The notes: generated by a model not told the origin, from the sequence alone. 64,000 nucleotides of DNA from a virus (IMGVR_UViG_3300031867_004305:64001-128000); one strand, 5' to 3'. Shown: positions 318-15,003, counted from the stretch's first letter. Translations and numbers: made by a program.

Positions 318-330
318 TAACAAGCCGGCC

Positions 331-372
331 AGTTAGTTTAGACTAACTAACAAGAGTTAGTTATAACTAACT
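331..372. promoter_or_regulatory. Tandem pair of 18-bp palindromic operator-like sites AGTTAG-N6-CTAACT
   Basis: 331-348 and 355-372; further copies at 484, 3700, 5337, 10960, 14405, 14424. Confidence 0.7.
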
Positions 373-660
373 ATGGGGTCCCCCGTATATTATACCACAT
401 CAATGTTAACTGCGTATTATCCTCATATTAAAAGTATATGAAGTTTTTTGTTAAGAATAGGTTAAGAAATGATCCGGCCCGCGAGTTAGTTTAAACTAAC
501 TAATCAACTGGTGGTTGCACAACCTGGAGTAGAATCAACCTGGAGTAGCAAATTCTACCATAGGTTGAATCTCACAACTTTACATGGATTTAATCAAAAA
601 ATGCTTACCAGTTAACATTGATCTGTTATAATGTATACAGTTGAAAGAGAGGTGCTTGAA

Positions 661-1128
661 ATGAAGATGACCCGCGAAATTAACCTGACTTACACCTACG
701 ACGCCACGCGTAAGGGAGCCAAGTACAGTATCAACGGAGGCGAAAGCTGGCTCAATGGTGGCGAGTTCGCGGAAGCTGTCGCCAAGGCACTCCACGGGCT
801 GGATCCCCGGAAGGACGCTAACACCCGCTTCGACGAAGGCTCCGACGTGCCCGAGTTCCACGCGAGCGTCAAGAGCTCCAAGGCGAGCCTGACCAACATG
901 AAGCTGGCTGACAGCTTCGAGGCAAGCCTGACTGCCTACTTCGAGCAGGTGGCAAGCTCCGAGTTCTGGTACGTGACTACCACCGACGAGCTGGCTACCA
1001 TCTACAAGATGAACGCCACGAAGTTCGAGCGGTTCCTGCGGAAGTTCGCTAAGCTCAACGAGCGTGGGGTCATCCGGATCGCGGCCACCAGCTCCAAGAT
1101 GCTGGCATGGTTGGACGCCAACGCCTAA
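661..1128 (+). CDS. Hypothetical protein (GC3-rich, possibly PD-(D/E)xK-like)
   Basis: ORF with GAGAGGTG RBS, TGnTATAAT upstream, hairpin across stop; SD...SVK motif only weakly suggestive. Confidence 0.75.
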   Translation: MKMTREINLTYTYDATRKGAKYSINGGESWLNGGEFAEAVAKALHGLDPRKDANTRFDEGSDVPEFHASVKSSKASLTNMKLADSFEASLTAYFEQVASSEFWYVTTTDELATIYKMNATKFERFLRKFAKLNERGVIRIAATSSKMLAWLDANA

Positions 1129-1174
1129 CGGCGAGCGTCCAACCACCTGGCTGGGAAATTAACAAAACCTTAAC

Positions 1175-1203
1175 TTGACAAGCTACGCCAGCTGTGATAT
1201 AAT
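1175..1203 (+). promoter_or_regulatory. Sigma-A promoter TTGACA-N17-TATAAT with extended TG (representative of ~35-40 in the array)
   Basis: Consensus match; similar at 1432, 1668, 2159, 2402, 2761, 3163, 3433, 3841, 4389, 4596, 6648, 6740, 6914, 7457, 8274, 8637, 8855, 9490, 9685, 10247, 10349, 10449, 11053, 11191, 11370, 11915, 12238, 12468, 12952 and on the minus strand near 5770, 5875, 6540, 13912. Confidence 0.9.
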
Positions 1204-1228
1204 GAGTACAACGAAAGGCAAGGAGGAA

Positions 1229-1375
1229 ATGAGAATGAAGATGTGGCTGGTTGACTACCGCGGCACCGACGGTGCCACCTACACCCGCAGGATGTCCTGC
1301 GAGGTCCTGGAGCTCCTGGAGGAGCTTGGGCCCCAATACGGGGTTGAGGTCTTGGGAGCTATTGAGCTTCCTTGA
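1229..1375 (+). CDS. Small hypothetical protein
   Basis: AAGGAGG RBS then ATG; own promoter. Confidence 0.75.
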   Translation: MRMKMWLVDYRGTDGATYTRRMSCEVLELLEELGPQYGVEVLGAIELP

Positions 1376-1489
1376 CCTCAAGGTATAAAACGAAAGCAAT
1401 TAACCAAATACAAATTTCACTAAAACTTAACTTGACAACTGAATAAATCCATGATATAATAAGTCCATCAAAGGAAAGGAGAAAACAAA

Positions 1490-1615
1490 ATGTTTGAGAT
1501 TTACAAGATCAGCACTGACAGGATTATCCTGTCTGGTCTCTCCCTGCGTGAGGCGCAGGCTCTCCGCCTGACTTGGGCGGATCGGGCGGACTTGATTGTC
1601 CGCCCCATGGCCTAA
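1490..1615 (+). CDS. 41-aa hypothetical protein (not in ORF track)
   Basis: Promoter 1432, AAAGGAG RBS, MFEIYKISTDRIILSG...RPMA*. Confidence 0.7.
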   Translation: MFEIYKISTDRIILSGLSLREAQALRLTWADRADLIVRPMA

Positions 1616-1728
1616 CGGAGAGCATAGGCTCTCCGCTGGCCGGCCCGTTTATTAACAAACTCTTAACTTGACAATTCTCTTTTTAAGTATTATAATATAT
1701 ACAGAAAGTAAGGAAAGAGGTAATCAAA

Positions 1729-2100
1729 ATGTTGTTCGGACGTAAAAAGAGGATGCTTAAGCGTGAACGCGAAATGTATTGGGAGTGTTCTGGTGAATGG
1801 TACTTTCGCGTGGAATACCATGAGGATTTCGCTCCCACGCCTTCTTACATGTACTTTGAAAGTTTGCGAGACGCAGAATATTGGGCAAAGACTGATCGCC
1901 GTGCTTCTTTCATTCTGTGTGTAACTGACAGACAGGGCAACAGGATTATAACTGACTGGACTGGTTATACTGGTGCTGGTACTGTTAATATGTGGACTAA
2001 TATAATGGGGCGTCAAGTTCTTGACTTGCGAAAAGACCATAATGAGTTGTGGGTATCCAACAACAGTCCTCGTGCCAAAGAAGTAAAACAGGGATTGTAA
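1729..2100 (+). CDS. Hypothetical protein
   Basis: Promoter, GAGGT RBS, hairpin across stop. Confidence 0.8.
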   Translation: MLFGRKKRMLKREREMYWECSGEWYFRVEYHEDFAPTPSYMYFESLRDAEYWAKTDRRASFILCVTDRQGNRIITDWTGYTGAGTVNMWTNIMGRQVLDLRKDHNELWVSNNSPRAKEVKQGL

Positions 2101-2212
2101 AATCCCTGTTAATTTACTGGCCGGCCCGCAACTTAACATACTCTTAACACAAAACCTATTGACTTTCCTGGCTCAATGGTGTATACTAGTATCAGAAAGT
2201 GAGGGAAAGAAA

Positions 2213-2389
2213 ATGAAGTTTTTGATGATTCCTTATGTGTTAGTTGCTTGCCTGTTTGGTTTCTTTGGTATTCTCCATGCGAATGATGTTGATGAAAATG
2301 ACTACTTCAAAGTTAATTGGCGTATGATTGTTTTCCTTATTATGATGATGTTGTCACCCATTCCAGCTAAGATCTTTGGTTTGCTTTAA
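2213..2389 (+). CDS. Small two-TM membrane protein
   Basis: Two hydrophobic stretches; similar C-end (P..AK..GL) to 8692-8847. Confidence 0.75.
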   Translation: MKFLMIPYVLVACLFGFFGILHANDVDENDYFKVNWRMIVFLIMMMLSPIPAKIFGLL

Positions 2390-2461
2390 CAAAAACTTAA
2401 CTTGACAACCACCAACCAATCTGCTATAATAAATACAGAAAGAGCGAAGGGAGTAATTCAA

Positions 2462-2713
2462 ATGAAGTTCTACATGGTCATGTGTCACAGAGGTCATTGC
2501 GGAGTGGGTCACAGCACTGAAATCAAGTTCGCAATCGCGGCGAACAATCTGCTCGAAGCGTGTGACAGGGCAAAGCGGATGCCGAGCGTGAAGCATACGC
2601 GAATGGCAATCTACGGCAAGGAAATCACCGAGGAAGAATATAGAGAGTATCGCTCCATTAGTGCTTACGAACGCTTCAATCAGAGCCAGCACAAATCTCA
2701 ACGCAGACGTTAA
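2462..2713 (+). CDS. Hypothetical protein (His/Cys motif CHRGHCG)
   Basis: Promoter 2402, GGGAG RBS, hairpin across stop. Confidence 0.8.
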   Translation: MKFYMVMCHRGHCGVGHSTEIKFAIAANNLLEACDRAKRMPSVKHTRMAIYGKEITEEEYREYRSISAYERFNQSQHKSQRRR

Positions 2714-2836
2714 GTCTGCGTTAACTTTCTGGCCGGGCATCAACTTAACATAGAATTAACTTGACTTCTTACAAAATCTATGCTATACTATATACAACAA
2801 GTGAAGGAAACACTTTAAAACCAGGAAGGTAAGAAA

Positions 2837-3100
2837 ATGAAGAAGATTATTACTATTGCTTTGATTATCACTCTGTGCTTGACTCTCACCGCGTGCCAAA
2901 TTGGCAATCGCAAAATCGGTTTCGACACTACGCAAACTTTCCGTTGGGCTATTGTTCAATTGGGCAACGGTGAACTGATTGAAGGTTCTGTAGATTCTTG
3001 GCGAGACTTTGACAACTCTGACACTATTCAAGTTACTATTAATGGCATTACTTACTTAACTCACTATAGTAATGTCATCCTAACGACCGAGAAGCCTTAA
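2837..3100 (+). CDS. Putative lipoprotein
   Basis: MKK + hydrophobic stretch + LTAC lipobox. Confidence 0.8.
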   Translation: MKKIITIALIITLCLTLTACQIGNRKIGFDTTQTFRWAIVQLGNGELIEGSVDSWRDFDNSDTIQVTINGITYLTHYSNVILTTEKP

Positions 3101-3197
3101 TAGCTTCTCGGTTATATTTATGTTAAATTCGCAGCCGGCCCGTGACTTAACAAACAATTAACTTGACTTCGCATCAAAAATATGCTATTATATATAT

Positions 3198-3363
3198 GTC
3201 GAAAGGAAAGAGGGAGTGATTCCATTGGGTTAGAGTAAGGGGCAACAGACCACTTGGCGGTGGAGAACTGACCTCACGATTACATGAAAACCGTTCCCCA
3301 TTAACCTTGGGCAAGTTAATGATGTTTGAAGCCTACCGCGAGAGACTGATCAACTCTCGCGGT
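3198..3363 (+). ncRNA. Promoter-driven transcript lacking an intact ORF (ncRNA or frameshifted micro-gene)
   Basis: Promoter 3163-3191; terminal hairpin ACCGCGAGAG/CTCTCGCGGT; RBS followed by TTG-GGT-TAG. Confidence 0.4.
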
Positions 3364-3496
3364 TTGTTATTTTAATGTTAATTTTCTGGCCGGCCAGAAA
3401 TGTTAATTCTATGTTAACTATCCTAAAAACACTTGACATTTTATTTTACTTATGATATAATAATTACAGAAAACAAACGAGAGGAGACATCCTAAA

Positions 3497-3646
3497 ATGA
3501 CAAAGCACAATTTCATTTCTACATGGGAAGATCTGAGCGATCAGGAACAAGTTTACATGTGGTGGGAATATAACGCGGCGAACCCTAATGAGGAAATTTC
3601 ATTTTCTGAGTTCGATGAAATGATGGCGGGATTCACTTTCGAGTGA
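3497..3646 (+). CDS. 49-aa acidic hypothetical protein (not in ORF track)
   Basis: Promoter 3433, GAGGAG RBS, MTKHNFISTWED...FTFE*, hairpin across stop. Confidence 0.75.
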   Translation: MTKHNFISTWEDLSDQEQVYMWWEYNAANPNEEISFSEFDEMMAGFTFE

Positions 3647-3900
3647 ATCCCATTTCATTTTAATTTTTAATTTAATGTTAAGGTACTGGTCGGCCAGCGA
3701 GTTAGTCATAACTAACCCACCTCTTTTTTATTTATTATACCATTCCAATTTCATTTTCGCAAGCACAATAATGTTAATTTCATTTTAAATTTTCACCCGG
3801 CCCGAAATGTTAAATCCAGGTTAAATCATCCTTTAACCTCTTGACTTTTGCCGTCGCCTGCTGTATAATATATACAGAAAGAGGAAAGGAAGTAAACAAA

Positions 3901-4341
3901 ATGAAGCAGACGATCTGGTTTGACATGGACGGCACTATCGCGAACCTCTACGGCGTGGAAAATTGGCTCCCGATGCTGATTGACAGCAATCCCGCTCCCT
4001 ACAAGCTGGCGACTCCGCTGGTCAACATGAACAAGTTGGCGCGGACGCTGAACAAGCTCCAGCGAGCTGGCTACAAGCTCGGTATCATCAGCTGGCTGAG
4101 CAAGTCCAGCACTCCCGAATATGACAAAGCTGTGACCGCCGCGAAGCTATGGTGGCTCCGCAAGCACCTTAACTCGGTAAAGTGGGATGCGGTTAACATC
4201 GTCGCCTATGGTCGCAACAAATGGGACGTGTGCGGTGAAGGAATCCTGTTTGATGACGAAAAACCGAACCGTGACAATTGGGGCGGTGAAGCCTTCCACC
4301 CTGACGAAATGATGAAAGTTCTGTCGAGCCTGACCGCTTGA
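3901..4341 (+). CDS. HAD-superfamily phosphatase (5'-nucleotidase/deoxyribonucleotidase-like)
   Basis: FDMDGT motif I and ILFDD motif IV. Confidence 0.8.
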   Translation: MKQTIWFDMDGTIANLYGVENWLPMLIDSNPAPYKLATPLVNMNKLARTLNKLQRAGYKLGIISWLSKSSTPEYDKAVTAAKLWWLRKHLNSVKWDAVNIVAYGRNKWDVCGEGILFDDEKPNRDNWGGEAFHPDEMMKVLSSLTA

Positions 4342-4441
4342 CAGAACTTTAACATTCGGCCCAGCCCGCAATTTAACACATAATTAACTTGACTTCATAC
4401 ATAATTTTTGCTATACTATATACAGAAAGAGGGAATGAAAG

Positions 4442-4594
4442 ATGAATGAACTTGATAACATTCGTGTGTGGATTATGCGTCAACCTGCTTCTCCCGCAAT
4501 TCGCACAATGCGACTTCACCTATTCGATCTCTATCGTTATGGCGAAGAATACGAAAAGATTTACCAAATGGTAGAAGAACTAACAAATAATTAA
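4442..4594 (+). CDS. 50-aa hypothetical protein (not in ORF track)
   Basis: Promoter 4389, GAGGG RBS; stop lies in the TTAAC box of the next cassette. Confidence 0.65.
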   Translation: MNELDNIRVWIMRQPASPAIRTMRLHLFDLYRYGEEYEKIYQMVEELTNN

Positions 4595-4672
4595 CTTGAC
4601 ATCCTCTCCAAACTCTGCTATAATAAGTACATAAGAGAAGGAAAACTCTTCCAAACCAGAAAGGGAAACAAC

Positions 4673-4996
4673 ATGACTAAGATGGAGATTCGCACCAACG
4701 TTAAGACCGCCGTTGCCGAGCAGTTTACTGAGTTTTTCGCCAACGCAATCCAGATCGACGACTTCACCTATGTGATCCCGATGGGAACCGCTGAGGATAA
4801 TGGTCGTCCGCTGTTCGCCAAGGTTGAGATTTCCTGTCCCAACTGGTACGCGACCGCCAAGACTGAGCCCTTCAACATCGACGCCAAGGTGGAGGCGTAT
4901 AACGCCGAGCTTGCCGAGCGTGCGGAGAAGGCCGCGGAAAAGGTACGCAAGGCCGCGGAAAAGGAAGCCAAGCGTAAGGAGAAGGAAGGGGAGTAA
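4673..4996 (+). CDS. Hypothetical protein, paralog family A (K/E/A-rich C-terminal helix)
   Basis: AAACCAGAAAGG leader; resembles 5374, 9763, 12547. Confidence 0.85.
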   Translation: MTKMEIRTNVKTAVAEQFTEFFANAIQIDDFTYVIPMGTAEDNGRPLFAKVEISCPNWYATAKTEPFNIDAKVEAYNAELAERAEKAAEKVRKAAEKEAKRKEKEGE

Positions 4997-5058
4997 CCCC
5001 TTCCTTCTTTTGTTATATCTGTGTTAAAAATCGGGCCGGGCTCCCGCTTAACATTTTC

Positions 5059-5232
5059 TTAATGAAAGAATGCGGGAAAGAAAATCAAAGCACCAAGAAT
5101 AATAATAGCAGTAGCTATATCAATAGTGATATTACGAGTATTAGTGTACATTTTTACAATGTCTTTCCACGTCAGACGATAGAACCACATCCGCACTTTG
5201 TAACCAGTAGTATTTCGCACATTTCGTTTCAT
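5059..5232 (-). CDS. Small membrane protein (inverted cassette)
   Basis: GAGGT RBS on minus strand, C-terminal TM helix. Confidence 0.65.
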   Translation of the reverse strand: MKRNVRNTTGYKVRMWFYRLTWKDIVKMYTNTRNITIDIATAIIILGALIFFPAFFH

Positions 5233-5373
5233 ATTGCTTACCTCACTTTCTATAAATAGTATAGCATATTTTATCCTTAAAAGCAATGACTTAAAGTTTT
5301 TTATATTATGACAAAATTATGCCAATCACCCGGCCCGGTTAGTCATAACTAACTGCCAATCAAAAAAGGAGGC

Positions 5374-5697
5374 TTACGCCTCCTCCTTCTTTGCCTTAGC
5401 CTTGGCTACCTTGGTAGCCTTTTCGGCATCCTTGATAGCCTTGGCATCAGCCTTGATCTTCTTCTCAGCTTCCCACTCTTCCGCGACCTCATAGGGGTCG
5501 AACGCCTTAGACACCTTGGTGTCCTTGTACGCCTTGGACTTGACGGTGACTTCCGTCCAAACTTCCTGACCGTCAACAGTCTGGAGGATGGCGAAAGACG
5601 CATCCGCGAACTTGACAGCCTCGTTCTCCATCAGGGCAGGCATGATAGCTTCGATGGTCATCTGACGAGCGGTGGACTTGATCTCATTAGCGTTCAT
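5374..5697 (-). CDS. Hypothetical protein, paralog family A (inverted cassette)
   Basis: AAACCAGAAAGG leader and promoter on minus strand, K/A-rich tail. Confidence 0.85.
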   Translation of the reverse strand: MNANEIKSTARQMTIEAIMPALMENEAVKFADASFAILQTVDGQEVWTEVTVKSKAYKDTKVSKAFDPYEVAEEWEAEKKIKADAKAIKDAEKATKVAKAKAKKEEA

Positions 5698-5790
5698 ATT
5701 ATTCCCTTTCTGGTTTTTGAGCCTTTTCCTTGGCTTCTGTAATTATTATAGCAGATTCAGCGACGCTTGTCAAGTTAATTCTTTATTAAC

Positions 5791-5845
5791 TTTGGCTCTG
5801 TCCCCAGTGCCCAACTCACGCCGTCCTTACCTCTGCCCTTGGAAC
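5791..5845 (-). ncRNA. Candidate small RNA
   Basis: Minus-strand promoter TTGACT(5880)-N17-TATAAT with no ORF before the next promoter at ~5770. Confidence 0.4.
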
Positions 5846-5948
5846 AATTATATTATAGCAGAATTTCCGCCAGGAGTCAAGCACTTTACAAAAACTTAAC
5901 AATCGCGGGCCGGCCAGAGAGTTAACATAGAAATAACAAAGAAACCGC

Positions 5949-6485
5949 TTACGCGGTTTCTTCATCTTCACATTCTTCAATGTAAGCATAATCTACAATC
6001 ACAGGTTGATGATGTCTAATGCCCCAATTCCAATCATGAAAATCAGTTAAACCAATACTTCTAATCCAACTCAATTCATCATAAGAGAGCATTTGTTCAA
6101 ATGTATATTTGTGACAATTAGGGCCTATTGCCTTGATACGCGGCATAATAGAAAAGATATAACCGCGATAGGTTATAAGCGTAGTTTCCGCGAACAGATA
6201 TTCATAACCAGCATCGCAAGCCATTTTATAAACCGCCGCTTCACGTTCACAGCCACCAATGTCCGCAACACATTCCGCATCATAATCCCACTTAATGACA
6301 TAATCAGAAGTAAGAAGGGCAATACGTGCGGAACCAGCTTCTGAAGAAACACGCCGCGAAGGATGATCGCAAATATAGCGACCTACTGCCTGTTTTACAT
6401 CCCATTCGGAAAACAGGTTATTTTCGATATAGGGAAAAATAGACTTCAAAAACTGGAAAGCACGAGTACGATAATCGGATTTCAT
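5949..6485 (-). CDS. Minimal protein-kinase-like protein (inverted cassette)
   Basis: GSAR..DYVIK, DFHDWN, IVDYA motifs; similar to 28578-29366. Confidence 0.65.
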   Translation of the reverse strand: MKSDYRTRAFQFLKSIFPYIENNLFSEWDVKQAVGRYICDHPSRRVSSEAGSARIALLTSDYVIKWDYDAECVADIGGCEREAAVYKMACDAGYEYLFAETTLITYRGYIFSIMPRIKAIGPNCHKYTFEQMLSYDELSWIRSIGLTDFHDWNWGIRHHQPVIVDYAYIEECEDEETA

Positions 6486-6683
6486 TTTATTTGCTCCCTT
6501 CGCTTTTCTATATATAGTATATACCAGTATGCTTATAATGTCAAGTTAATTTTATGTTAAGTTTCGGGCCGGGTGATTGTTAATTTCATTTTAAGTTATT
6601 ACCCGGCCCGCCAATGTTAAATCCAGGTTAACTTTCCCATTAAGCACTTGACATTTCATTCAGATTCTGCTATACTATATACA

Positions 6684-6723
6684 GTTGAGGGCGAGGGAAA
6701 CACTTCCCAAAACCCGAGACAAC
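6684..6723 (+). ncRNA. Candidate small RNA 1 of module 1
   Basis: Promoter 6648-6676; GTTG...CAAC ends, internal GGGAA/TTCCC hairpin; no ORF. Confidence 0.45.
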
Positions 6724-6773
6724 TTCACGAAATCTTAACTTGACAAGGTTGGGAAATCGTGATATAATGAGGA

Positions 6774-6903
6774 TGTTGAGAGGACAAGAGCCAACTTGAA
6801 TAAAAATGGCCACAAACAGACTGCCAAGTAGAGAACGGGATTTATGAGCGTACACCTTTGGTTAAGGCACTGTTATTGTCTCCCGAAATAAAAACTCTCA
6901 ACA
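6774..6903 (+). ncRNA. Candidate small RNA 2 of module 1
   Basis: Promoter 6740-6768; 9-bp closing stem TGTTGAGAG/CTCTCAACA; no credible ORF. Confidence 0.55.
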
Positions 6904-6993
6904 AACTCTTAACTTGACATTATACCAAATCTGTGGTATAATAAATACATCAAAGGGAAGGAAAACCCACCAAACCAGAAAGGACAAAACACT

Positions 6994-7329
6994 ATGAAGA
7001 AGAACACCATCACCGCTCTGTACAACTACTTCGTGAACTCCGACGACACCATCGACCTGTCCGCTGTGGTTGAGGACATTCGTGCTGAGTATGAGCGTAC
7101 CACCGCGAAGTCTCAGGAGAAGGCTAACGCCTACGATACCGCGAAGCCCATCGTGTTCGGCGTCATGACTGAGCCGATGACGGTCAAGGAGATTTTCGCC
7201 AAGTGCGAGAACGACCTGCCCGATGGCTTCACCTCGCACAAGATCCAATATGCTTTGCTGAACTACTGGTGCGACGAGGTTGCCAAGATTGACAACGGCA
7301 AGGCTCCCTTCACCTACATGGTGAAGTGA
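6994..7329 (+). CDS. Winged-helix-like protein, paralog family B
   Basis: MTVKEIF...DGFTSHKIQYAL...KAPFTY; similar to 10528 and 11451. Confidence 0.8.
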   Translation: MKKNTITALYNYFVNSDDTIDLSAVVEDIRAEYERTTAKSQEKANAYDTAKPIVFGVMTEPMTVKEIFAKCENDLPDGFTSHKIQYALLNYWCDEVAKIDNGKAPFTYMVK

Positions 7330-7333
7330 GACT

Positions 7334-7360
7334 AAACCGCCCTTCGGGGCGGTTTTCTTT
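7334..7360 (+). terminator. Intrinsic terminator
   Basis: AAACCGCCC-TTCG-GGGCGGTTTT. Confidence 0.85.
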
Positions 7361-7517
7361 TACATTTCATTCTGTTAAGTTTTCGTTAATTTTCGGGCCG
7401 GGCGTGGAGTTAACAATCATTTAACTTGCCCGGCCGCGAGTTAACACAATCTTAACTTGACTTTTATTCCTGGCGAATGTATAATAGATACAGAAATTAG
7501 GAAAGGAACTAAACAAA

Positions 7518-8228
7518 ATGATTCTTAACATCACTGACCGTTACATTCTGATTCTGGACGTTGAAACCGCAAACGACACCATCGACGCTATTGTCTATGA
7601 CATTGGCTTCATGTTGGTTGACCTTTACACAAACGCAATCTGTGAGCAGGGTTCTTTCGTAATTCGTGACACTTTCGTTTATGAACGCGAACTCGTAAAG
7701 GTTGCCTACTACGGCGATAAGATTCCTGAATACGTCGCAGACATTCAGCAGGGAAAGCGTCAAATGATTGACTTTTTGACGGCAAGGCGTCATATTCTTA
7801 ACTTGATGGAAAAGTATGATTGCCATACGGTTGGGGCGTACAATTGTAACTTTGACCGCAACGCTCTTAACACAACTCTCCGTTTCTTAACGAAATCTAA
7901 ATATCGCTACTTCTTCCCTTACTCTACTAATTTTGTGTGTATTTGGAATATGGCTTGCGATACCATCTGTCAGACAAGCGAATATAAAACGTTTGCCGAG
8001 ACTAACCGCCATTATTCCAATCATGGCAAAAATTATCGTGCCACCGCAGAGGTTGTTTACTCATTCTTAACAAATAACCCTGACTTCCACGAGGAACACA
8101 AAGGTTACGATGATGTTAAGATTGAAAAGGAAATTATGGAAAAGTGTCTGGAATATGACAAGAACTTTAAGGGAATAAAAAGAAACTGTTGGCAAAAAGT
8201 CAAACGGGGAGCACTCGCTCTCCGTTAA
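7518..8228 (+). CDS. DEDDh 3'-5' exonuclease
   Basis: LDVET (ExoI), AYNCNFD (ExoII), HKGYDD (ExoIII). Confidence 0.85.
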   Translation: MILNITDRYILILDVETANDTIDAIVYDIGFMLVDLYTNAICEQGSFVIRDTFVYERELVKVAYYGDKIPEYVADIQQGKRQMIDFLTARRHILNLMEKYDCHTVGAYNCNFDRNALNTTLRFLTKSKYRYFFPYSTNFVCIWNMACDTICQTSEYKTFAETNRHYSNHGKNYRATAEVVYSFLTNNPDFHEEHKGYDDVKIEKEIMEKCLEYDKNFKGIKRNCWQKVKRGALALR

Positions 8229-8332
8229 TTTTATGTTAAGTTTCGGGCCGGCCGACCTTTACACAGAATTAACTTGACTTCTCTCTTGAATTTTGATATA
8301 CTATATATAGAAAAAGAAAGGAGATTTCAACT

Positions 8333-8587
8333 ATGACTGTTAAGGAATTGATTAAGGAACTCCAGAAAATGCCCGAAGATGCTGTTGTACTCGGCGATAT
8401 GTATCTTAATCAGTATTGCGTTATTGATACAGTTGAATATGATGACGCGACGAACACCATCTCGTTCTATGGCGAGGATACTTTTGAAGAACCTGACATT
8501 CCCGATGATGTAGACGAGACTAACTACGACCCCTACTGCGGTTGTGATATGTTTGAAATCTGCGGATCAATTGATGAGGAATGGTAA
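8333..8587 (+). CDS. Acidic hypothetical protein
   Basis: Promoter, AAAGGAG RBS; common phage MTVKELIKEL N-terminus. Confidence 0.8.
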   Translation: MTVKELIKELQKMPEDAVVLGDMYLNQYCVIDTVEYDDATNTISFYGEDTFEEPDIPDDVDETNYDPYCGCDMFEICGSIDEEW

Positions 8588-8691
8588 TTAACCATTCCTT
8601 AACATTGGCCGGCCCACCATTTAACACAATCTTAACTTGACTTCCGCGTGCGAATCGTGTATAATTATATCAGAAAGTGAGGAATGCCATT

Positions 8692-8847
8692 ATGTTAGCG
8701 TTTAGCATTATTATTTTCATTTGGGGACTGTCGGGAATTTGTGGGTTGATAAATTGTAAAAAAGAAAGGATAATTTGGGAACTCTTAATTTTTGGAATTA
8801 TGATTCCTTTTCTACCTGTTTTTGCTAAACTATGTGGTTTAATATAA
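8692..8847 (+). CDS. 51-aa two-TM membrane protein (not in ORF track)
   Basis: Promoter 8637, GAGG RBS, hydrophobic; resembles 2213-2389. Confidence 0.65.
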   Translation: MLAFSIIIFIWGLSGICGLINCKKERIIWELLIFGIMIPFLPVFAKLCGLI

Positions 8848-8908
8848 ACTTAACTTGACTTTTATTTCCCTATCTGTTATAATAATTCCAGAAAGTGAGG
8901 AAACGCAA

Positions 8909-9049
8909 ATGGAAAAGAAAAATCAGAACCGCGAAACTTGGGTCGGCTATCGCCCCTCCGTCATTCCCGCGAAGAAGAAGAACAAGAAACGCGACCGCAA
9001 AGAAGGCAAGCAGATTTGCCGTAATGCTATGAAAGGAGAAAAGGATTAA
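8909..9049 (+). CDS. Small basic protein
   Basis: Promoter 8855, GAGG RBS. Confidence 0.7.
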   Translation: MEKKNQNRETWVGYRPSVIPAKKKNKKRDRKEGKQICRNAMKGEKD

Positions 9050-9258
9050 TGAGCTTTTGGAAAAAACAAGAATATTGGTATATTATTGATGAAAAATTTT
9101 TCGGATATAACCCTTATTGGTGGGGCGGTTGTGCGGTTGATAATAATTTAAATGGAAATAATAAAGGACTATATAGAACAATATGTCGCGTAGCAAAAAA
9201 TAAAAAACGTAAATCTCGCATAATAGAAAGGAAAATAAAAAATGCGAACCAATCTTGA
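9049..9258 (+). CDS. Hypothetical protein
   Basis: Coupled TAATG start, AAGGA RBS. Confidence 0.6.
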   Translation: MSFWKKQEYWYIIDEKFFGYNPYWWGGCAVDNNLNGNNKGLYRTICRVAKNKKRKSRIIERKIKNANQS

Positions 9259-9445
9259 AATCGCCGCCGAACTTATCGCCGCGGACGTCCGTAATCTCAA
9301 TAATATTGAGGAATATTGTGGCTATCCCGATTTCAATCGGCTTGATGGTATTGAACGCGACAAACTTTCTAAAATGGTTGATGAACTATTAATCATTATC
9401 TATCGGCGGCAAAACCGCCAGCGAATGGAATGGGAGAATAGTTAG
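9242..9445 (+). CDS. Hypothetical protein
   Basis: GAAAGG RBS, hairpin across stop. Confidence 0.7.
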   Translation: MRTNLEIAAELIAADVRNLNNIEEYCGYPDFNRLDGIERDKLSKMVDELLIIIYRRQNRQRMEWENS

Positions 9446-9547
9446 TTCTCCCTAACTCCGCCCGGCCCGAGATTTAACAAACTTTTTACTTGACTTTTCC
9501 TGGATTTTGTGTTATAATAATTATAGAAAGTGAAAGGAGAAAGTCAA

Positions 9548-9688
9548 ATGATTATTAACATCACTATTGACACCGATAACAATTTTGTTTGGGCAGTAGA
9601 TGAAAATCAGGAAACCAGCATTGACTATTCCGCGTGTGATCTTTCCGCAATATCCGTAGAAGAAATTATTAACGATTTCTTAACTTGA
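9548..9688 (+). CDS. 46-aa acidic protein (not in ORF track)
   Basis: Promoter 9490, AAAGGAG RBS; TGA stop lies inside the next -35 box. Confidence 0.65.
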   Translation: MIINITIDTDNNFVWAVDENQETSIDYSACDLSAISVEEIINDFLT

Positions 9689-9762
9689 CTTCTCCCGTCG
9701 AATCTGCTATACTATATCCAGAAGGTGAAGGAAAACACCACAAACCAGAAAGGATAACGCCC

Positions 9763-10167
9763 ATGAGTAAGGCTTCTCTTGAAACTGAAATCCGCAACAA
9801 CGTTCTCCAGACCATCATTGACGCCGTGAATCCCATCAGCGACATTCTCCCGATTAGTGCCAGCGAACTCGCTCTCCCCATCGTTGACAGCGAGGGCAAC
9901 GAAAAGTTTGCCGTTATCAAAGTCAGCATTCCTCGCGGTGAGCGTGACGGCAACGGCGGTTACATCCCCTTTGACGGTTACGCCGCCGCCGAGGATTGGA
10001 AACTGGTACTTGCGGATCGTGCCGATAAGGCGGCGAAACGCAAGGAAAAGGCGGAACGTGCCGAAAAGGAAAAGGAAAGGAAACGACAGGCACGCAAGGT
10101 TGTAAAAGACCTTAACACGGTGGGCTTTAAGGCTCTCGTGTCCCAGCCGATTAATGAGGGTGAGTAA
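9763..10167 (+). CDS. Hypothetical protein, paralog family A
   Basis: AAACCAGAAAGG leader, K/E-rich helix, ends EGE*. Confidence 0.85.
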   Translation: MSKASLETEIRNNVLQTIIDAVNPISDILPISASELALPIVDSEGNEKFAVIKVSIPRGERDGNGGYIPFDGYAAAEDWKLVLADRADKAAKRKEKAERAEKEKERKRQARKVVKDLNTVGFKALVSQPINEGE

Positions 10168-10280
10168 TCACCCTCTTTGTTATTTTTATGTTAATTTTCA
10201 GGCCGGCCCGCTTTGTTAAGATTGTGTTAAATACTCCTAGAACTACTTGACTTTGAGTGGAGATTCTGCTATACTAATAT

Positions 10281-10338
10281 TGTTGAGAGGGCAAGAAAAC
10301 CTCAAGACAAAAGGGTGAAAGTCCCACCCCTCTCAACA
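10281..10338 (+). ncRNA. Candidate small RNA 1 of module 2
   Basis: Promoter 10247-10275; 11-bp closing stem TGTTGAGAGGG/CCCTCTCAACA, same ends as the 6774 RNA. Confidence 0.55.
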
Positions 10339-10383
10339 AAATCTTAACTTGACAAACTCCAAGATTTCTGCTATAATGATTAC

Positions 10384-10431
10384 ATCAGAGAGGGAAACGA
10401 GAGGTTCAAAGTTCGAGAGGTTCCGAGAGAA
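10384..10431 (+). ncRNA. Candidate small RNA 2 of module 2
   Basis: Promoter 10349-10377; GAGAGG(TTC) repeats; no ORF. Confidence 0.4.
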
Positions 10432-10527
10432 CTTAACAGAGACTTAACTTGACAAACTACTCCCAATCTGATATAATAAAGACAAGAGAGGGGAAGGAAA
10501 ACCCCACAAACCAGAAAGGGAATCATT

Positions 10528-10923
10528 ATGAAGAACACCATGACTTATGCCGTCGCTCTGTCCACCGCTATCGAGACCATGAAGGACACCAATCCCGAAG
10601 TTGCGGAGCGTCTGACCGCTCTGCGTGCGACCCTTGCGAAGCGTTCCCAGCGTAGCGAGGATTCCAAGGCTAAGGCTTCTGCGAAGCGGAAACAGCAGAA
10701 CGCCGAGAAGCGTGCCGAGATGTGTGCGGAGATCGTGCCGATTCTGCGTGAGGTCATCACCACGGACATGACCGCGAAGGAAATCTTCGCCGTTGCTCAG
10801 GATCGTCTGCCGAAGGACTTCACCGCGAACAAGGTTCAGGCGATTCTCCTGCGTGAGATGAAGGACGAGGTTATCAAGACCGAGACCAAGGGCAAGGCGA
10901 ACACCTATCGCCTTGCGGAGTGA
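10528..10923 (+). CDS. Winged-helix-like protein, paralog family B
   Basis: MTAKEIF...DFTANKVQAIL...KANTYRL; AAACCAGAAAGG leader. Confidence 0.8.
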   Translation: MKNTMTYAVALSTAIETMKDTNPEVAERLTALRATLAKRSQRSEDSKAKASAKRKQQNAEKRAEMCAEIVPILREVITTDMTAKEIFAVAQDRLPKDFTANKVQAILLREMKDEVIKTETKGKANTYRLAE

Positions 10924-10924
10924 T

Positions 10925-10953
10925 AGAAGGGGCTAACGCCCCTTCTTTTTTTT
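10925..10953 (+). terminator. Intrinsic terminator
   Basis: AGAAGGGGC-TAAC-GCCCCTTCT + T run. Confidence 0.85.
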
Positions 10954-11087
10954 ATGGCGAGTTAGCCAGGACTAACTCGGCCGGGTAATGTAAAATGTTT
11001 GTTAAGTAATCGCCCGGCCCGCGATTTAACATAATCTTTACACAGAAAAGTATTGACAACCAGCGGATTTTCTGCTATACTATTATT

Positions 11088-11174
11088 GTCGGTGGGGGAA
11101 ACGGGAGCGCGCAGGCGCAAGCGCGTTGTGGTAATTAGAAACATGCAACAGTTGATCGGCCACCTAAAGCCGAC
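11088..11174 (+). ncRNA. Candidate small RNA 1 of module 3
   Basis: Promoter 11053-11081; GTCGGT/GCCGAC closing stem and internal GC-rich hairpin; no ORF. Confidence 0.5.
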
Positions 11175-11230
11175 TTAACAAAATCTTAACTTGACATTAC
11201 AGCCTAAAAGTGCTATAATGAATACATCAA

Positions 11231-11349
11231 GGGGAGCGAACGTGGCATCAGGGGAGCCACCACGGTAAGTCGCAAGACGATTGCGTAGGCCACTTGCAAA
11301 AGAGGGTCGTCCCATGAGGGATGGAGTTCAATTCTCCCGCTCTCCACCA
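11231..11349 (+). ncRNA. tRNA-like RNA with Ala-type acceptor (G3:U70, A73, CCA) and no anticodon loop
   Basis: GGGGAGCG/CGCTCTCC-A-CCA acceptor, GGAG-TTCAATT-CTCC T-arm, four internal hairpins; promoter 11191-11219. Confidence 0.7.
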
Positions 11350-11450
11350 GATTATAACAGAATCTTAACTTGACAAATAGTTGAGAATCTGATATAATAA
11401 ATACATCAAGAGGACAAGGAAAAGTCCTAAAAACCAGAAAGGGATTTACT

Positions 11451-11840
11451 ATGAAGAATACCATCACTCGCGTTGACGCTCTGAACTACGCTATCAATGC
11501 CATCGACCAGTGTACCGAAACCGATGTTGAGGTCGTCGCTATCCTCGAGAAGATTCGCGATCAGATCGCGAAGCCTCGCAAGACCAGCGACACCGCCAAG
11601 GCGAACGCCAAGGCGAAGCGTGCGAACGCTCGTGCGGAACTGATGAAGGATGTTCTGCCCATCCTGCGGGATGCTCTGACCGAGGGCGGTACCGCCAAGG
11701 AAATCTTTGAGCGGTGTGCCGATATGCTCCCCGAAGATTTCACCAGTGCCAAGGTACAGTACATTCTGCTTCACGAACTGGCGGACGAGGTCGTTAAGAC
11801 CGAAGCCAAGGGTAAGGCGAATGTCTACACCCTGCGGTAA
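11451..11840 (+). CDS. Winged-helix-like protein, paralog family B
   Basis: TAKEIF...DFTSAKVQYIL...KANVYTL; AAACCAGAAAGG leader. Confidence 0.8.
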   Translation: MKNTITRVDALNYAINAIDQCTETDVEVVAILEKIRDQIAKPRKTSDTAKANAKAKRANARAELMKDVLPILRDALTEGGTAKEIFERCADMLPEDFTSAKVQYILLHELADEVVKTEAKGKANVYTLR

Positions 11841-11841
11841 A

Positions 11842-11865
11842 AACAGAGGGCGAAAGCCCTCTGTT
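11842..11865 (+). terminator. Intrinsic terminator
   Basis: AACAGAGGGC-GAAA-GCCCTCTGTT. Confidence 0.8.
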
Positions 11866-11974
11866 AATTTTTTGTTAAAAATCGGGCCGGGCCGTTAGTT
11901 AACCAAATCTTTACTTGACTTCTATCAAAATTGGGAGTATAATAATTATAGAAAAAAGAAAGGGGATACCGATT

Positions 11975-12184
11975 ATGGCTATCAACATTCGTCACACTTA
12001 CAGCACTCACGTTGAGATTACTTTCTATGCTGAAGATGGCATTACCCTGCGTTGTCGTGATTGCGGACAGATGGACGACATCGCCGAGCAGGTTTGTGAA
12101 GTTCTGGTTAAGCACGACTTTGCTTATGCCGATATCTGCTCCGCCGAAACTGGCGAGGTTCTCATGGTGATTGAGCGGACTTAA
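11975..12184 (+). CDS. Hypothetical protein
   Basis: Promoter 11915, AAAGGGG RBS, hairpin across stop. Confidence 0.75.
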   Translation: MAINIRHTYSTHVEITFYAEDGITLRCRDCGQMDDIAEQVCEVLVKHDFAYADICSAETGEVLMVIERT

Positions 12185-12291
12185 CGTCCGCTTAACATCT
12201 TCGCCCGGCCCACCCATGTTAAGTTTCTGTAAACCTATTGACTTTTGATCGCGATTTATGGTATTATATATATGTCAGGAGGGAACAGGAA

Positions 12292-12471
12292 ATGTTAGAT
12301 AAAGCCATTAAATCAGGCAAAGAACATCGTAAACCTTATTACGATACACGACGTTTTGATTGTACTTGTCGCAATCATGGTTCTTGTGATTGGTGTAAAG
12401 CAAATCGACTTTACCAGATTACCAGAGAAAAAGACAAAGCAAACAACAAACTTAATGAATACTTTACTTGA
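12292..12471 (+). CDS. Small Cys-containing protein (CxCRNHGxCxxC)
   Basis: AGGAGG RBS; stop lies inside the next -35 box. Confidence 0.75.
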   Translation: MLDKAIKSGKEHRKPYYDTRRFDCTCRNHGSCDWCKANRLYQITREKDKANNKLNEYFT

Positions 12472-12546
12472 CAAATCCCAAATCCTGTGCTATAATATAA
12501 TCAAGAAGTGAAGGAAAACACTTACAAACCAGAAAGGGTCTACACT

Positions 12547-12882
12547 ATGAAGATTTCCAAGGCTATCGTCGATTCCAACATCCGCACCGCTATCTTCAAT
12601 GCTCTGAACGTTGCCAACATCGAAGGATTCCACAAGATCAACGACCGCCAGTATGGTTGTATCGTTGAGGATGTCAACGGCGAACGTCGCTACGCTCGCG
12701 TGGGTGTCATCGTTGCCGAGGTCCGCGAGGACTGTACCGCCGATGAACTGATGGCGTCTGAGATCGCGGACTACAACGCGAAGCAGGAAGCCAAGGCGAA
12801 GCGTGCCGAGGAACGCAAGGCGAAAGCCGAGCGTGACAAGGCGAAGCGTGAAGCCACCAAGAAGGAAAAGGAAGGGGAGTAA
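12547..12882 (+). CDS. Hypothetical protein, paralog family A
   Basis: AAACCAGAAAGG leader, ends KEKEGE*. Confidence 0.85.
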   Translation: MKISKAIVDSNIRTAIFNALNVANIEGFHKINDRQYGCIVEDVNGERRYARVGVIVAEVREDCTADELMASEIADYNAKQEAKAKRAEERKAKAERDKAKREATKKEKEGE

Positions 12883-13012
12883 TCCCCTTCCTCCCGAAGG
12901 TTAACTTCATGTTAATTTTCGGGCCGGGCCAGAACTTAATCAAATCTTAACTTGACATTTCATTCAAAGCGGAGTATACTATATACAGAAAGAAACGAAA
13001 GGGGACTTCACA

Positions 13013-13246
13013 GTGGGCGTTTACATCGTGACTACCAATTACTTCATGAATGGCTTCTTCGGCATTTACACCACTGTCAAGCGTGCGCGTATTGCGCTTG
13101 AACAGTACTTTGCGGATGACGATGATGTCGTTGCGTTTGAGGACGTAGACAATTACAGCTATACCTTCACCACTCGTAACGGCGCACAGTTCAGCGCGGA
13201 AATTATGTGGGCCGATATTGACGAAGAATTCAAGGAGGATGAATAA
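13013..13246 (+). CDS. Hypothetical protein
   Basis: Promoter 12952, AAAGGGG RBS, GTG start. Confidence 0.75.
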   Translation: MGVYIVTTNYFMNGFFGIYTTVKRARIALEQYFADDDDVVAFEDVDNYSYTFTTRNGAQFSAEIMWADIDEEFKEDE

Positions 13247-13249
13247 TTT

Positions 13250-13441
13250 ATGAAGTGTCCTAATTGCGGAAATGAAATCTACGCGATCGATACCCTTGAT
13301 AGTGATTGTTGCGGTGACTCTTATTTTGATCGCGTTGAAGGCACTTGCCCCAATTGCGGCAAATCATGGCGATGGATTGAGGTTTTCACCTTTGACCATT
13401 GTGAAAACATAGAAGAAATAAAAGAGGACGACCATCTTTGA
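13250..13441 (+). CDS. Zinc-ribbon protein
   Basis: Two CPNC motifs; AAGGAGG RBS. Confidence 0.75.
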   Translation: MKCPNCGNEIYAIDTLDSDCCGDSYFDRVEGTCPNCGKSWRWIEVFTFDHCENIEEIKEDDHL

Positions 13442-13504
13442 TGGTCGTTAACTTTATGTTAAAAAAACGGGCCGGGCAACATCTTAACAAAAAATTAAAG
13501 TGGG

Positions 13505-13858
13505 CTATTCGCCCACTTTAACCCATTCCAATTTTATCCAATCATATTCATACAAACCTACTTCATCATGCGGTAATTCATAACCAAAATAAGAATCAAT
13601 CAATTCCATAGCTTCATGCGAAATAATTTTCTTTACACGAATTTTTTCGCATCTGTCGAAAGCATATTTAATAGCATCTAATCCTTGCTCTACTCCGTTT
13701 AAAAAAATCCAGATATACCCGCCATTTTTCCCAAAGAAATCATAAGCATTAAAAAACTCTTCCAACAGATCAAAAGCCTTGCCCTCATATTCTTCGCATT
13801 CTTCAAAGTTATCAAACTCAGTGTCATCATAAGCAACATAAGTAACAACTTCACGCAT
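13505..13858 (-). CDS. Acidic hypothetical protein (inverted cassette)
   Basis: Minus-strand promoter ~13912 and AAAGGAG RBS; flanked by spacer cores. Confidence 0.8.
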   Translation of the reverse strand: MREVVTYVAYDDTEFDNFEECEEYEGKAFDLLEEFFNAYDFFGKNGGYIWIFLNGVEQGLDAIKYAFDRCEKIRVKKIISHEAMELIDSYFGYELPHDEVGLYEYDWIKLEWVKVGE

Positions 13859-14038
13859 ACTCAGTATCTCCTTTCCTTTTCTACATATATAATATCATAA
13901 ACCCAACCCAAAGTCAAGTTAAATCCAGGTTAATAAACCGCCCGCCGCGAACTTTACATAAACTTTACACAAACTCTGTTGCTTCTTAACAGTCGAATAT
14001 GGTATTATATACATACAAAAGGAAAGGGGATTTCAAAA

Positions 14039-14266
14039 ATGTTGAAGTTCATTATCATGCTCGCGGTTTCCATTTGGCTCACTTCCTCTCTGTTTATGCT
14101 GTTCTTTTGGGCGAATGCTTTCATCACTACCTTGCGGAAAGATGGTAAAATTTTCCTGATGCCGTTTGGTCAATTCCTCTATTTCCACTTCTGCCCTATT
14201 GTACATACTGTCAAGTGCTTTAAAATCATGCGACAAATGGCCGAATTGACGAAACGCGGAGTGTAA
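14039..14266 (+). CDS. Small membrane protein
   Basis: AAAGGGG RBS; hydrophobic; hairpin across stop. Confidence 0.7.
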   Translation: MLKFIIMLAVSIWLTSSLFMLFFWANAFITTLRKDGKIFLMPFGQFLYFHFCPIVHTVKCFKIMRQMAELTKRGV

Positions 14267-14404
14267 ACTCCGCGTTAAGTTTTCGCCCGGGCAGTAATGT
14301 AAATTCTATGTTAAGGAATTACCCGGCCCGAAATTTAACAAAAAGTCAACATAAACCCTCGCACAGATTTAACATTACTATGGTATAATATCGGGGGAGG
14401 CACC

Positions 14405-14441
14405 AGTTAGCCTAAACTAACCGAGTTAGTTGTGGCTAACT
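14405..14441. promoter_or_regulatory. Tandem pair of AGTTAG-N6-CTAAC(T/C) palindromes, mirror of 331-372
   Basis: 14405-14422 and 14424-14441. Confidence 0.7.
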
Positions 14442-14532
14442 AACTTTTTCGGGCTTCGGGCTTCCCCTCTTCAGTATAGCACACTTTGTGTTAAGAATCA
14501 AGCATTTTTGTGTTAAGTTTAGGTTAAGTTCA

Positions 14533-14572
14533 CACTTTAGCATGGTAGCACTTTAGCATGGTAAAGTGGTAA
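14533..14572. repeat. Short 8-bp-period array related to 38-317
   Basis: CACTTTAG CATGGTAG CACTTTAG CATGGTAA AGTGGTAA. Confidence 0.75.
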
Positions 14573-14652
14573 ATCCCTAAAGTCCTACTATTTGACTATA
14601 GTATAAATTTATGTTATAATTATTTTAGAAAGGGAGGGTTATATTACACGGC

Positions 14653-14845
14653 AAGCTGGAAACGGGCCCGCGAGCTGGAAGCTGGACAAGCTGGATACGA
14701 GCTGGAAGCTGAATCACCGGCCAGCTGGAACCAACGCCACACGAGCTGGAAATTCCTGGCCAGGCTGGCGAGCTGGAAAGCTGATGCCAAGTATTTGACA
14801 AGCTGGAACTTTCTGGCCCGTTAGGAGCCATATAGAAGCTGGAAT
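14653..14845 (+). repeat. Cluster of about 10-13 AGCTGG(AA) direct repeats (iteron-like)
   Basis: Direct observation; abuts the AT-rich tract. Confidence 0.8.
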
Positions 14846-15003
14846 TTTTTAAAAAAAATATCCCATTCTAGTATAACATAAATTATTTATTTTGTCAAAT
14901 AAATAATTATTTTTTATTTTAAAATAAAATTTTTTTATTTATTAAAATAAATTAAAATAATTTAAAAATAATTAAAATACTTTTCTTTTGAGAAAATAAA
15001 AAT
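14846..15003. other. Very AT-rich tract (possible DNA unwinding element)
   Basis: Nearly G/C-free run between the AGCTGG repeats and the helicase operon. Confidence 0.5.

Follow-up and report, generated by a model that had tools for sequence, protein, structure and literature searches.

The locus described here raises the question whether a palindromic element that is repeated between dozens of small phage genes serves to regulate these genes, to recombine them, or both. It lies at the beginning of a stretch of 64,000 nucleotides (in the following, the window) that comprises bases 64001-128000 of the 181,042-bp virus record IMGVR_UViG_3300031867_004305, which is rated as complete by CheckV. 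Unless stated otherwise, coordinates refer to the window. A preliminary description of this DNA had reported an integron-like array of self-contained expression cassettes, separated by a composite near-palindrome that was interpreted as a scaffold for shuffling, inverting and capturing early genes. The array is real and widespread, but it is not an integron. It appears probable that the motif is a shared regulatory module of an early promoter class, and that its many copies also drive homology-based shuffling of the kind associated with the promoter early stem-loop (PeSL) elements of T4-type phages. In this evolutionary, PeSL-like sense its designation as a recombination scaffold is right.

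Architecture and distribution of the composite motif

The following parts of the array lie within the window:

605-14266, plus strand: right arm of the early-gene array, approximately 33 small protein genes (41-236 amino acids, good Shine-Dalgarno sequences) and 7 promoter-driven units without an open reading frame (ORF), mostly one promoter per unit
5059-5232, 5374-5697, 5949-6485 and 13505-13858, minus strand: four genes of the right arm, ORF calls

The ORF calls thus bear out the four inverted genes of the preliminary description. The array extends beyond the limits given there (324-14345, with 35-40 cassettes), as approximately 4 kb have to be added to the left. There, at 60.0-63.4 kb of the genome (L001:6000-9450), a leftward-transcribed arm with related grammar harbors about 10 further mini-genes, and both arms together comprise approximately 45 mostly monocistronic units. 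A consensus scan of the array located 80 promoter-like sites, compared with 29 ± 6 in shuffled sequences, and 32 terminator-like sites, compared with 14. Fourteen promoters match TTGACA-17-TATAAT at 12 of 12 positions and about 43 at 10 or more; most have a TG before the -10 box. Nearly every unit possesses its own promoter of this type, as had been proposed.

The full module, read on the plus strand, begins with a gene-specific terminator hairpin, in or beside the loop of which the stop codon is often located. GTTAA-N6-GTTAA overlaps the T-rich tail of this terminator and is followed by 4-5 free bases, a GC palindrome formed by CGGGCCGG and CCGGCCCG half-sites (the core), another 4-6 free bases and TTAAC(A)-N5/6-TTAAC, which directly abuts the -35 hexamer. 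The right-hand TTAAC boxes cover about -37 to -52, the region of bacterial promoters in which UP-element subsites are located and class I activators act. A half-module, consisting of a core half and two outward TTAAC boxes, is found beside promoters and beside terminators, as well as back to back at convergent junctions and in divergent promoter pairs.

Other sigma-A-like promoters are present in further parts of the genome, but the motif is restricted to the array. TTAAC-N6-TTAAC-TTGAC (at most one mismatch) occurs in 26 copies, all at 1159-13933, against 0.01 expected and none elsewhere in the 181-kb genome; all 23 genomic copies of TTAACTTGAC are located within the array, and 49 of the 61 GGCCGG sites at 60-80 kb. 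All motif copies fall within 60-78.4 kb of the genome, which extends to the complete phage the earlier statement that the composite is essentially confined to the array. The number of about 30 near-palindromes given previously corresponds to the GC cores, but arms flank the core on both sides in only 19 cases, and a complete palindrome with all four arms (50-53 bp) is formed in only 9. Approximately 14 promoters carry the right-hand TTAAC pair only and no core. Individual sites are listed below.

2709-2766, plus strand: typical full composite with terminator tail GTTAA-N6-GTTAA, GC core and TTAAC-N6-TTAAC abutting the -35
12900-12957, plus strand: full four-arm composite abutting the -35; a 448-bp insert of relative R2 starts exactly at the right edge of the core (12928/12937)
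7374-7462, plus strand: double composite with deletion scar (TTAACTTG fused to CCCGGCC); slot of cassettes in relatives R2 and R3
10190-10252, plus strand: composite with chimera-like core; the two matching R3 cores flank an extra cassette
12192-12243, plus strand: composite matching two R3 composites, junction interval in the core
1159-1203, plus strand: core-less promoter, TTAAC-N6-TTAAC directly before a perfect TTGACA-17-TATAAT
5023-5063, no strand: composite between two convergent gene ends, promoterless on both sides
13447-13499, no strand: full four-arm composite between convergent gene ends, promoterless
6516-6676, no strand: divergent promoter pair (minus at 6544, plus at 6648), each promoter with its own arm pair and core half-site (CGGGCCGGG, CCCGGCCCG)
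13889-14010: second divergent promoter pair with half-modules
14263-14345, no strand: last composite, its core split, at the array's right border

Conservation of the motif and its possible function

Relatives were obtained by an exact-pattern scan of IMG/VR, which yielded at least 120 stretches. Among the matches listed, at least 17 contigs contain three or more motif copies, and three of them are complete genomes of 169, 181 and 184 kb. The arrays of five relatives (R1-R5) were compared with the array described here (R0). In 828 distinct promoters from the listed loci the conserved blocks are discrete and stand in fixed phase, whereas the spacers are free. These blocks are TTAACA at -16 relative to the -35 and TTAAC abutting the -35 (57%), 11 bp apart, followed by the -35 itself, TGn, the -10 hexamer and the start region. 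An upstream GC run is present in only 31% of the TTAAC-abutted promoters and ends 17-25 bp before the -35.

In the six genomes the logos of the arms are near-invariant, whereas the centre is lineage-specific. The genome described here and R1-R3 have GGCCGGCC, and in R5 the centre is (C)CCGG, embedded in inner arms that are AT-rich. The centre of R4 is ACGT; these four bases alone are fixed, and the four bases to either side of them vary. In each of the related loci one centre type predominates, and orthologous slots, such as that after the homolog of 12547-12882, bear the centre type of their own genome. Fixed blocks and spacing, free spacers and a dyad centre make up what is, judged by the sequences, the signature of a protein-binding site, which duplication or gene conversion alone would not keep. 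The core is also associated with the match of the promoter to the consensus: promoters with a core mostly deviate from it (TTGACT and/or TATACT), whereas most of those lacking a core are perfect. In R0 the numbers of perfect and sub-consensus promoters are 4 and 17 with a core and 17 and 6 without (p=3.5e-4), and a similar trend was found in R1, R3 and R4. This suggests that core-bearing and core-less promoters may represent two classes.

On the regulatory side of the favoured explanation, the units would be read by host RNA polymerase carrying the primary sigma factor. The arms and the centre of a module that extends from the upstream terminator tail (GTTAA-N6-GTTAA) over the short palindrome to the TTAAC-N6-TTAAC against the -35 would be bound by a symmetric protein, which could come from the phage or from the host (host factor/RNA polymerase alpha subunit). 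The bound factor may then set the activity of these promoters, insulate them or silence them at a later stage. On the recombination side, the approximately 45 near-identical modules within 18 kb would be substrates for general short-homology recombination, which would delete, insert or replace whole cassettes and leave the genes unbroken.

It is conceivable, although this is put forward tentatively, that the four-arm palindrome is the operator of a new global regulator of early genes, possibly one of the paralogs with coiled coil and winged helix that are encoded in the array. Its specificity would have been switched between lineages (GGCCGGCC, CCGG, ACGT) while the arms stayed fixed, and binding at the centre would also make this the preferred point of breakage or exchange. 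If this were true, one protein-DNA complex would control and shuffle approximately 45 cassettes without a classical recombinase. Dispersed operators occur in other phages: the P1 C1 repressor has more than 10 of them, and sites for p4 of phi29 are located upstream of early promoters. As in these systems, one short site, palindromic or phased, recurs beside the -35 of many promoters of the same class. The site described here differs in its length of about 50 bp, its four arms and centre and its presence at promoterless places, and its regulator is only a candidate.

Paralogous genes are scattered through the array as described previously, and they include those of the winged-helix family:

6994-7329, plus strand: winged-helix paralog 1, after two ORF-less promoter units (promoters 6648, 6740)
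10528-10923, plus strand: winged-helix paralog 2, C-terminal winged helix preceded by a long helical hairpin (AlphaFold2 pLDDT 85)
11451-11840, plus strand: winged-helix paralog 3

Homologs of this family are present in all five relatives, and 352 metagenomic homologs were found, which belong to no Pfam family. A Foldseek search of the PDB with the model of 10528-10923 returned weak matches only, to PadR, ArsR and Fur folds (E >= 8e-3). The presence of winged-helix paralogs showed no clean pattern with respect to the centre type across the related loci. These proteins are speculative candidates for the DNA-binding factor of the motif and serve as a lead only. A ParB/Noc-type interpretation, based on the CACGTG- and CCCGGG-like centres, was rejected, as the genome contains no ParB_N domain.

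Cassette exchange and alternative explanations

At the protein level, R1-R3 are colinear with the genome described here and differ by the presence, absence or replacement of single cassettes. Gene order is reshuffled in R4 and R5, where homologs of 5949, 4442, 4673, 13505 and 5374 form a block beside the helicase gene. The distribution of individual cassettes is patchy. Among the five relatives, a homolog of 2837 was found only in the distant R4 and R5 and one of 661 only in R2 and R3; for genes 1235, 1729 and 9049 none of the five yielded a homolog. Neighbouring cassettes span 29% to 60% GC, with 59-60% at 661-1375 compared with 29-30% at 8692-9258. This gap in base composition suggests acquisition from different sources.

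The junctions of these differences are concentrated in the module. Of 132 homology breakpoints at the DNA level, 67% lie within -80 to +60 of a -35, compared with 35 ± 4% for random positions (maximum 53% in 2000 trials). Among the clean, distinct empty-site junctions of the six arrays, 15 of 24 are located at most 10 bp from a GC core, whereas about 7% (6-9% of positions in the four GC-type genomes) would be expected by chance. By our rough estimate, cores plus 10 bp account for only about 25-30% of the intergenic space, so the excess at cores survives this stricter null. In a second pass over more loci, in which a strict composite-midpoint measure was too narrow for the GC lineage, about 7 of 15 junctions were assigned to the core, 2 to the -35/-10 region, 2 to terminator hairpins, 2 to the RBS (ribosome-binding site) or start and the rest elsewhere. 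This indicates that the exchange points are spread over all conserved regulatory pieces. The clean events in lineages with a 4-bp centre, 4 for ACGT and 0 for CCGG, are too few to separate site-specific from homology-driven exchange.

Several slots illustrate these events. At 7422-7432 the genome described here and R1 harbor a scar that joins TTAACTT(G) to a core; R2 has a 662-bp cassette and R3 an unrelated 529-bp cassette at this slot, which is empty here. The core at 10190-10252 looks like a chimera of two cores; in R3 these enclose an additional cassette of 462 bp, and the arrangement is consistent with a crossover between the two. At 12192-12243, R3 has two composites around an extra 377-bp cassette and the junction interval falls in the core. 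The R2 insert at 12928/12937 is a promoterless ORF with its own RBS. One junction interval comprises just the 2 central bases of CTGGCCGGCCAG. Gain, loss and replacement of cassettes at the spacer, as proposed, are thus supported, but no single crossover point emerges, and the expectation that breakpoints would map to the GC core applies to the 15 junctions mentioned; junctions were also located in promoters, leaders and terminators.

A number of observations weigh against the combination of a regulatory module with homology-based shuffling. The promoterless composites between convergent gene ends (5023-5063, 13447-13499) have no promoter to regulate, and the binding factor is a predicted one. 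The association of the core with promoter class is weak in R2 (p=0.076) and absent in R5, and common descent of the module copies could yield it without function. Selection for intact genes alone would partly give the clustering of junctions in intergenic modules, and the exact crossover point is not resolved by BLAST ends. The over-representation of junctions at cores, even compared with the intergenic space, would also allow for a break that occurs specifically at the centre.

We consider it rather unlikely that the motif is purely regulatory, that is, that repeats do not raise the recombination rate and that junctions cluster only because broken genes are selected against and alignments end in conserved sequence. 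The binding-site-like conservation, the fixed orientation of the genes and the colinear gene order of R1-R3 would agree with this, and since the intergenic DNA of the array is nearly all module, any viable junction would fall in one. However, duplicated module sequence flanks the junction intervals, chimeric cores occur, the scar at 7422-7432 joins TTAACTT-type repeats, and unrelated cassettes reuse the same slot. Moreover, cores are struck more often than their share of the intergenic space predicts, and the mini-circles of PeSLs provide an experimental precedent (PMC2839356).

A true site-specific recombination site, integron- or shufflon-like, with crossover at the centre by an unrecognised phage or host recombinase, is unlikely. 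It would account for the 15 of 24 clean junctions near the core, the junction interval at the 2 central bases and the chimeric cores, and a lineage-specific centre could follow the specificity of a recombinase. The palindromic design would also permit inversion, and the minus-strand block 5059-6544 is bounded by composites as an inversion at cores would leave it. However, every family has a fixed orientation. In about 200 gene observations from approximately 50 related loci there were 0 true flips, and the genes of the minus strand keep this orientation throughout, which speaks against inversion as a live process. The complete 181-kb genome yielded no match to Phage_integrase (PF00589), Resolvase, rve (DDE) or Y1_Tnp (PF01797) in profile searches for which positive controls worked in each family (14 of 14 genomes for PF00589). 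The lack of a visible recombinase noted for the window thus holds for the entire genome, and a dedicated site-specific system is not supported. Furthermore, approximately half of the junctions are located elsewhere (-35/-10, RBS, terminators), and breakpoints also occur at the approximately 14 armed but core-less promoters.

Single-gene cassettes between imperfect palindromes and a cassette content that varies among relatives are features shared with integrons. However, there is no IntI or other tyrosine recombinase, every cassette has its own promoter instead of a single Pc, orientation and much of the gene order are stable, the arms are arranged as GTTAA...TTAAC and thus in opposite order to attC (RYYYAAC...GTTRRRY), and the single-strand fold is weak and inconsistent. 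Likewise, unlike in Hin, Gin and shufflon systems, no serine or tyrosine recombinase is present and no gene is found in both orientations.

The general recombination invoked by the favoured explanation could involve a Sak4-like AAA_24 gene (G000:C1:4477-5064, a 335-aa open frame, E 7e-48), which is the sole recombination-type function found; RecA/UvsX and RecT had no match in the genome. The AAA_24/Sak4-like family includes phage single-strand-annealing recombinases.

It is highly improbable that the GC centre is a small selfish palindrome, similar to repetitive extragenic palindromic (REP) sequences or miniature inverted-repeat transposable elements, that invaded GTTAAC-like sites in a pre-existing grammar of promoters and terminators and is functionless for the phage. 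The core is optional across the relatives and nearly missing in R4, and the inner arms G-TTAA ... TTAA-C resemble a TTAA target duplication in GTTAAC. However, R4 and R5 have another palindromic centre at the same place and spacing and not an empty site, the element would be only about 20 bp long, and the N6 phasing of the outer arms would be unexplained. As to mobilization, the genome contains no DDE transposase and, unlike in REP/BIME (bacterial interspersed mosaic element) systems with RAYT (REP-associated tyrosine transposase), no Y1 (HUH) transposase.

A bidirectional terminator or RNA-level insulator between strongly expressed units is very improbable as well: the composite directly follows gene ends, PeSL stem-loops have been shown to terminate transcription, and GUUAA and UUAAC can pair, but in RNA folds the stability is contributed by the gene-specific hairpins that lie upstream, the fold of the composite is weak and varies among the copies (z -0.35 to -2.2, no strong upstream hairpin included), and on both strands the core is T-rich before and A-rich after, the wrong way round for an intrinsic terminator, and thus the composite is not read as one.

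Relation to known phage modules and further features

In PeSLs, a consensus sigma-70 promoter is joined by an upstream part rich in AT and by a G/C stem-loop; a genome contains about 50 of them, located ahead of ORFans in hyperplastic regions (PMC2839356, PMC4122927), and homologous recombination between flanking PeSLs leads to indels and mini-circles (PMC2839356). The likeness to this system, suggested previously, is borne out in several respects. As described by Arbiol et al. (2010) and Comeau et al. (2014), about 50 copies per genome of a composite of approximately 100 bp, made up of a consensus primary-sigma early promoter, a G/C palindrome and an A/T-rich part upstream, cluster in hyperplastic regions ahead of ORFans, indel and replacement junctions between related phages fall in the motif, and there is no dedicated recombinase. 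The array described here differs in three points. It appears to belong to a different phage lineage, for which INPHARED, with 50,697 deposited phage genomes, yielded no near-identical DNA in searches with the array and with the next 21 kb. It has two exact TTAAC boxes in 11-bp phase that are mirrored to a symmetric four-arm site. Its G/C element is a short, lineage-specific palindrome (GGCCGGCC, CCGG, ACGT) with a weak predicted hairpin and no stable stem-loop, and termination is predicted at separate gene-specific hairpins, which are strong and located just upstream. Promoter/terminator-mediated modular shuffling would thus extend beyond T4-type coliphages to a widespread uncultured clade of 160-185-kb phages, with a cis element that is unusually well defined by its symmetry and by a centre sequence that changed between lineages.

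SPO1's module for host takeover (PMC6873191) provides a second parallel, as small early genes that have strong sigma-A promoters and RBS occupy a block of 12-18 kb in a large virulent phage of a Gram-positive host. A cluster of small genes with strong sigma-A-type promoters and strong RBS is likewise present here. No protein homology to SPO1 was found with PHROGs and Pfam; the genes of SPO1 are organized in operons, and no symmetric four-arm spacer has been described for it. The array offers a tractable system for analyzing how virulent phages co-regulate dozens of host-takeover genes and exchange them undestroyed. It may also be a rich source of compact, very strong and self-insulated expression units, unknown anti-host proteins and small RNAs.

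The genes downstream of the array include those for a helicase and a T4-type RNA ligase, as well as for a Gp10-like baseplate protein and for tail-fibre repeats, and they identify a large tailed phage. T4-like domains are scattered and limited to Gp10_C and RNA ligase 1, and the best protein match of the helicase adjoining the array is to a Clostridioides phage at 25% identity. RBS of the AAGGAGG type and TGn-extended -10 boxes suggest a Firmicute host. As part of the favoured explanation, the phage is likely to be a virulent, myovirus-like phage of approximately 181 kb, with the array as its early hyperplastic region of the host-takeover type. Within the array, Pfam and PHROGs assigned almost none of the cassette proteins to a family; exceptions are a HAD/5'-nucleotidase at 3901-4341 and phrog_20187 at 7518-8228.

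Outside the array, four of the 4-mer palindromes are strongly depleted in the genome, with observed/expected (O/E) ratios of 0.26 for GCGC, 0.38 for GATC, 0.47 for TGCA and 0.51 for TCGA, which is consistent with restriction avoidance. Inside the array CTAG (O/E 0.17) and TGCA (O/E 0.20) are nearly missing. The palindromic centre was also considered as a restriction site or decoy, and this was rejected because GGCC (O/E 0.92) and CCGG (0.67) are not avoided elsewhere in the genome, whereas GCGC, GATC and TGCA are.

The remaining features of the array concern its borders and its non-coding parts:

1-323, no strand: non-coding repeat zone between the divergent arms, with GTAAAGTGGTAGCAT-type units and CACTTTA..TAAAGTG inverted repeats, extending about 600 bp further to the left of the window
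3197-3375, 6680-6735, 6775-6895, 10280-10335, 10385-10440 and 11088-11175: ORF-less promoter-driven stretches, no Rfam match
2795-2836, 4635-4672, 6950-6993, 9720-9762, 10487-10527, 11405-11450 and 12503-12546: common leaders

The two arms diverge from the repeat-rich non-coding zone that takes in 1-323. Repeats of its GTAAAGTGGTAGCAT and CACTTTA..TAAAGTG type are located at both borders of the right arm and at the outer border of the left arm (1-323, 14520-14580, L001:6170-6500 and L001:9480-9640), and similar repeats are kept at the same borders in R4 and R5. Units of the left arm have consensus promoters, GGCCGGCC cores, TT(A/T)ACA boxes and an extra TTAGTT-N4-6-AACTAA palindrome, which recurs in the window at 331-380, 485-505, 3700-3720, 5340-5355 and 14405-14440. 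Beyond the right border, directly upstream of the helicase gene, the region 14640-15000 contains approximately 11 copies of (A)GCTGGA(A) in 190 bp, followed by 170 bp of almost pure A/T. With its resemblance to iterons and an unwinding element, it is a candidate replication origin. Runs of AGCTGGAA are also found within the arrays of R4 and R5.

Scans of the array for tRNAs and Rfam families gave no matches. In three cases, two ORF-less units stand before a winged-helix paralog. The ORF-less unit 11226-11350 (promoter 11191) has a multi-branched RNA fold (z = -3.2) with an acceptor-like closing stem, a T-arm-like hairpin and a 3' ACCA; ARAGORN did not call a tRNA in it. At a similar place in its array, R5 harbors a genuine tRNA-Lys(UUU) (L126:12063-12138). 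The common leaders precede genes of higher GC content. They consist of a small hairpin, the loop of which is of the AAGGAAA type, and of AAACCAGAAAGG between this hairpin and the start codon. The sequences of their stems differ, whereas the pairing is kept.

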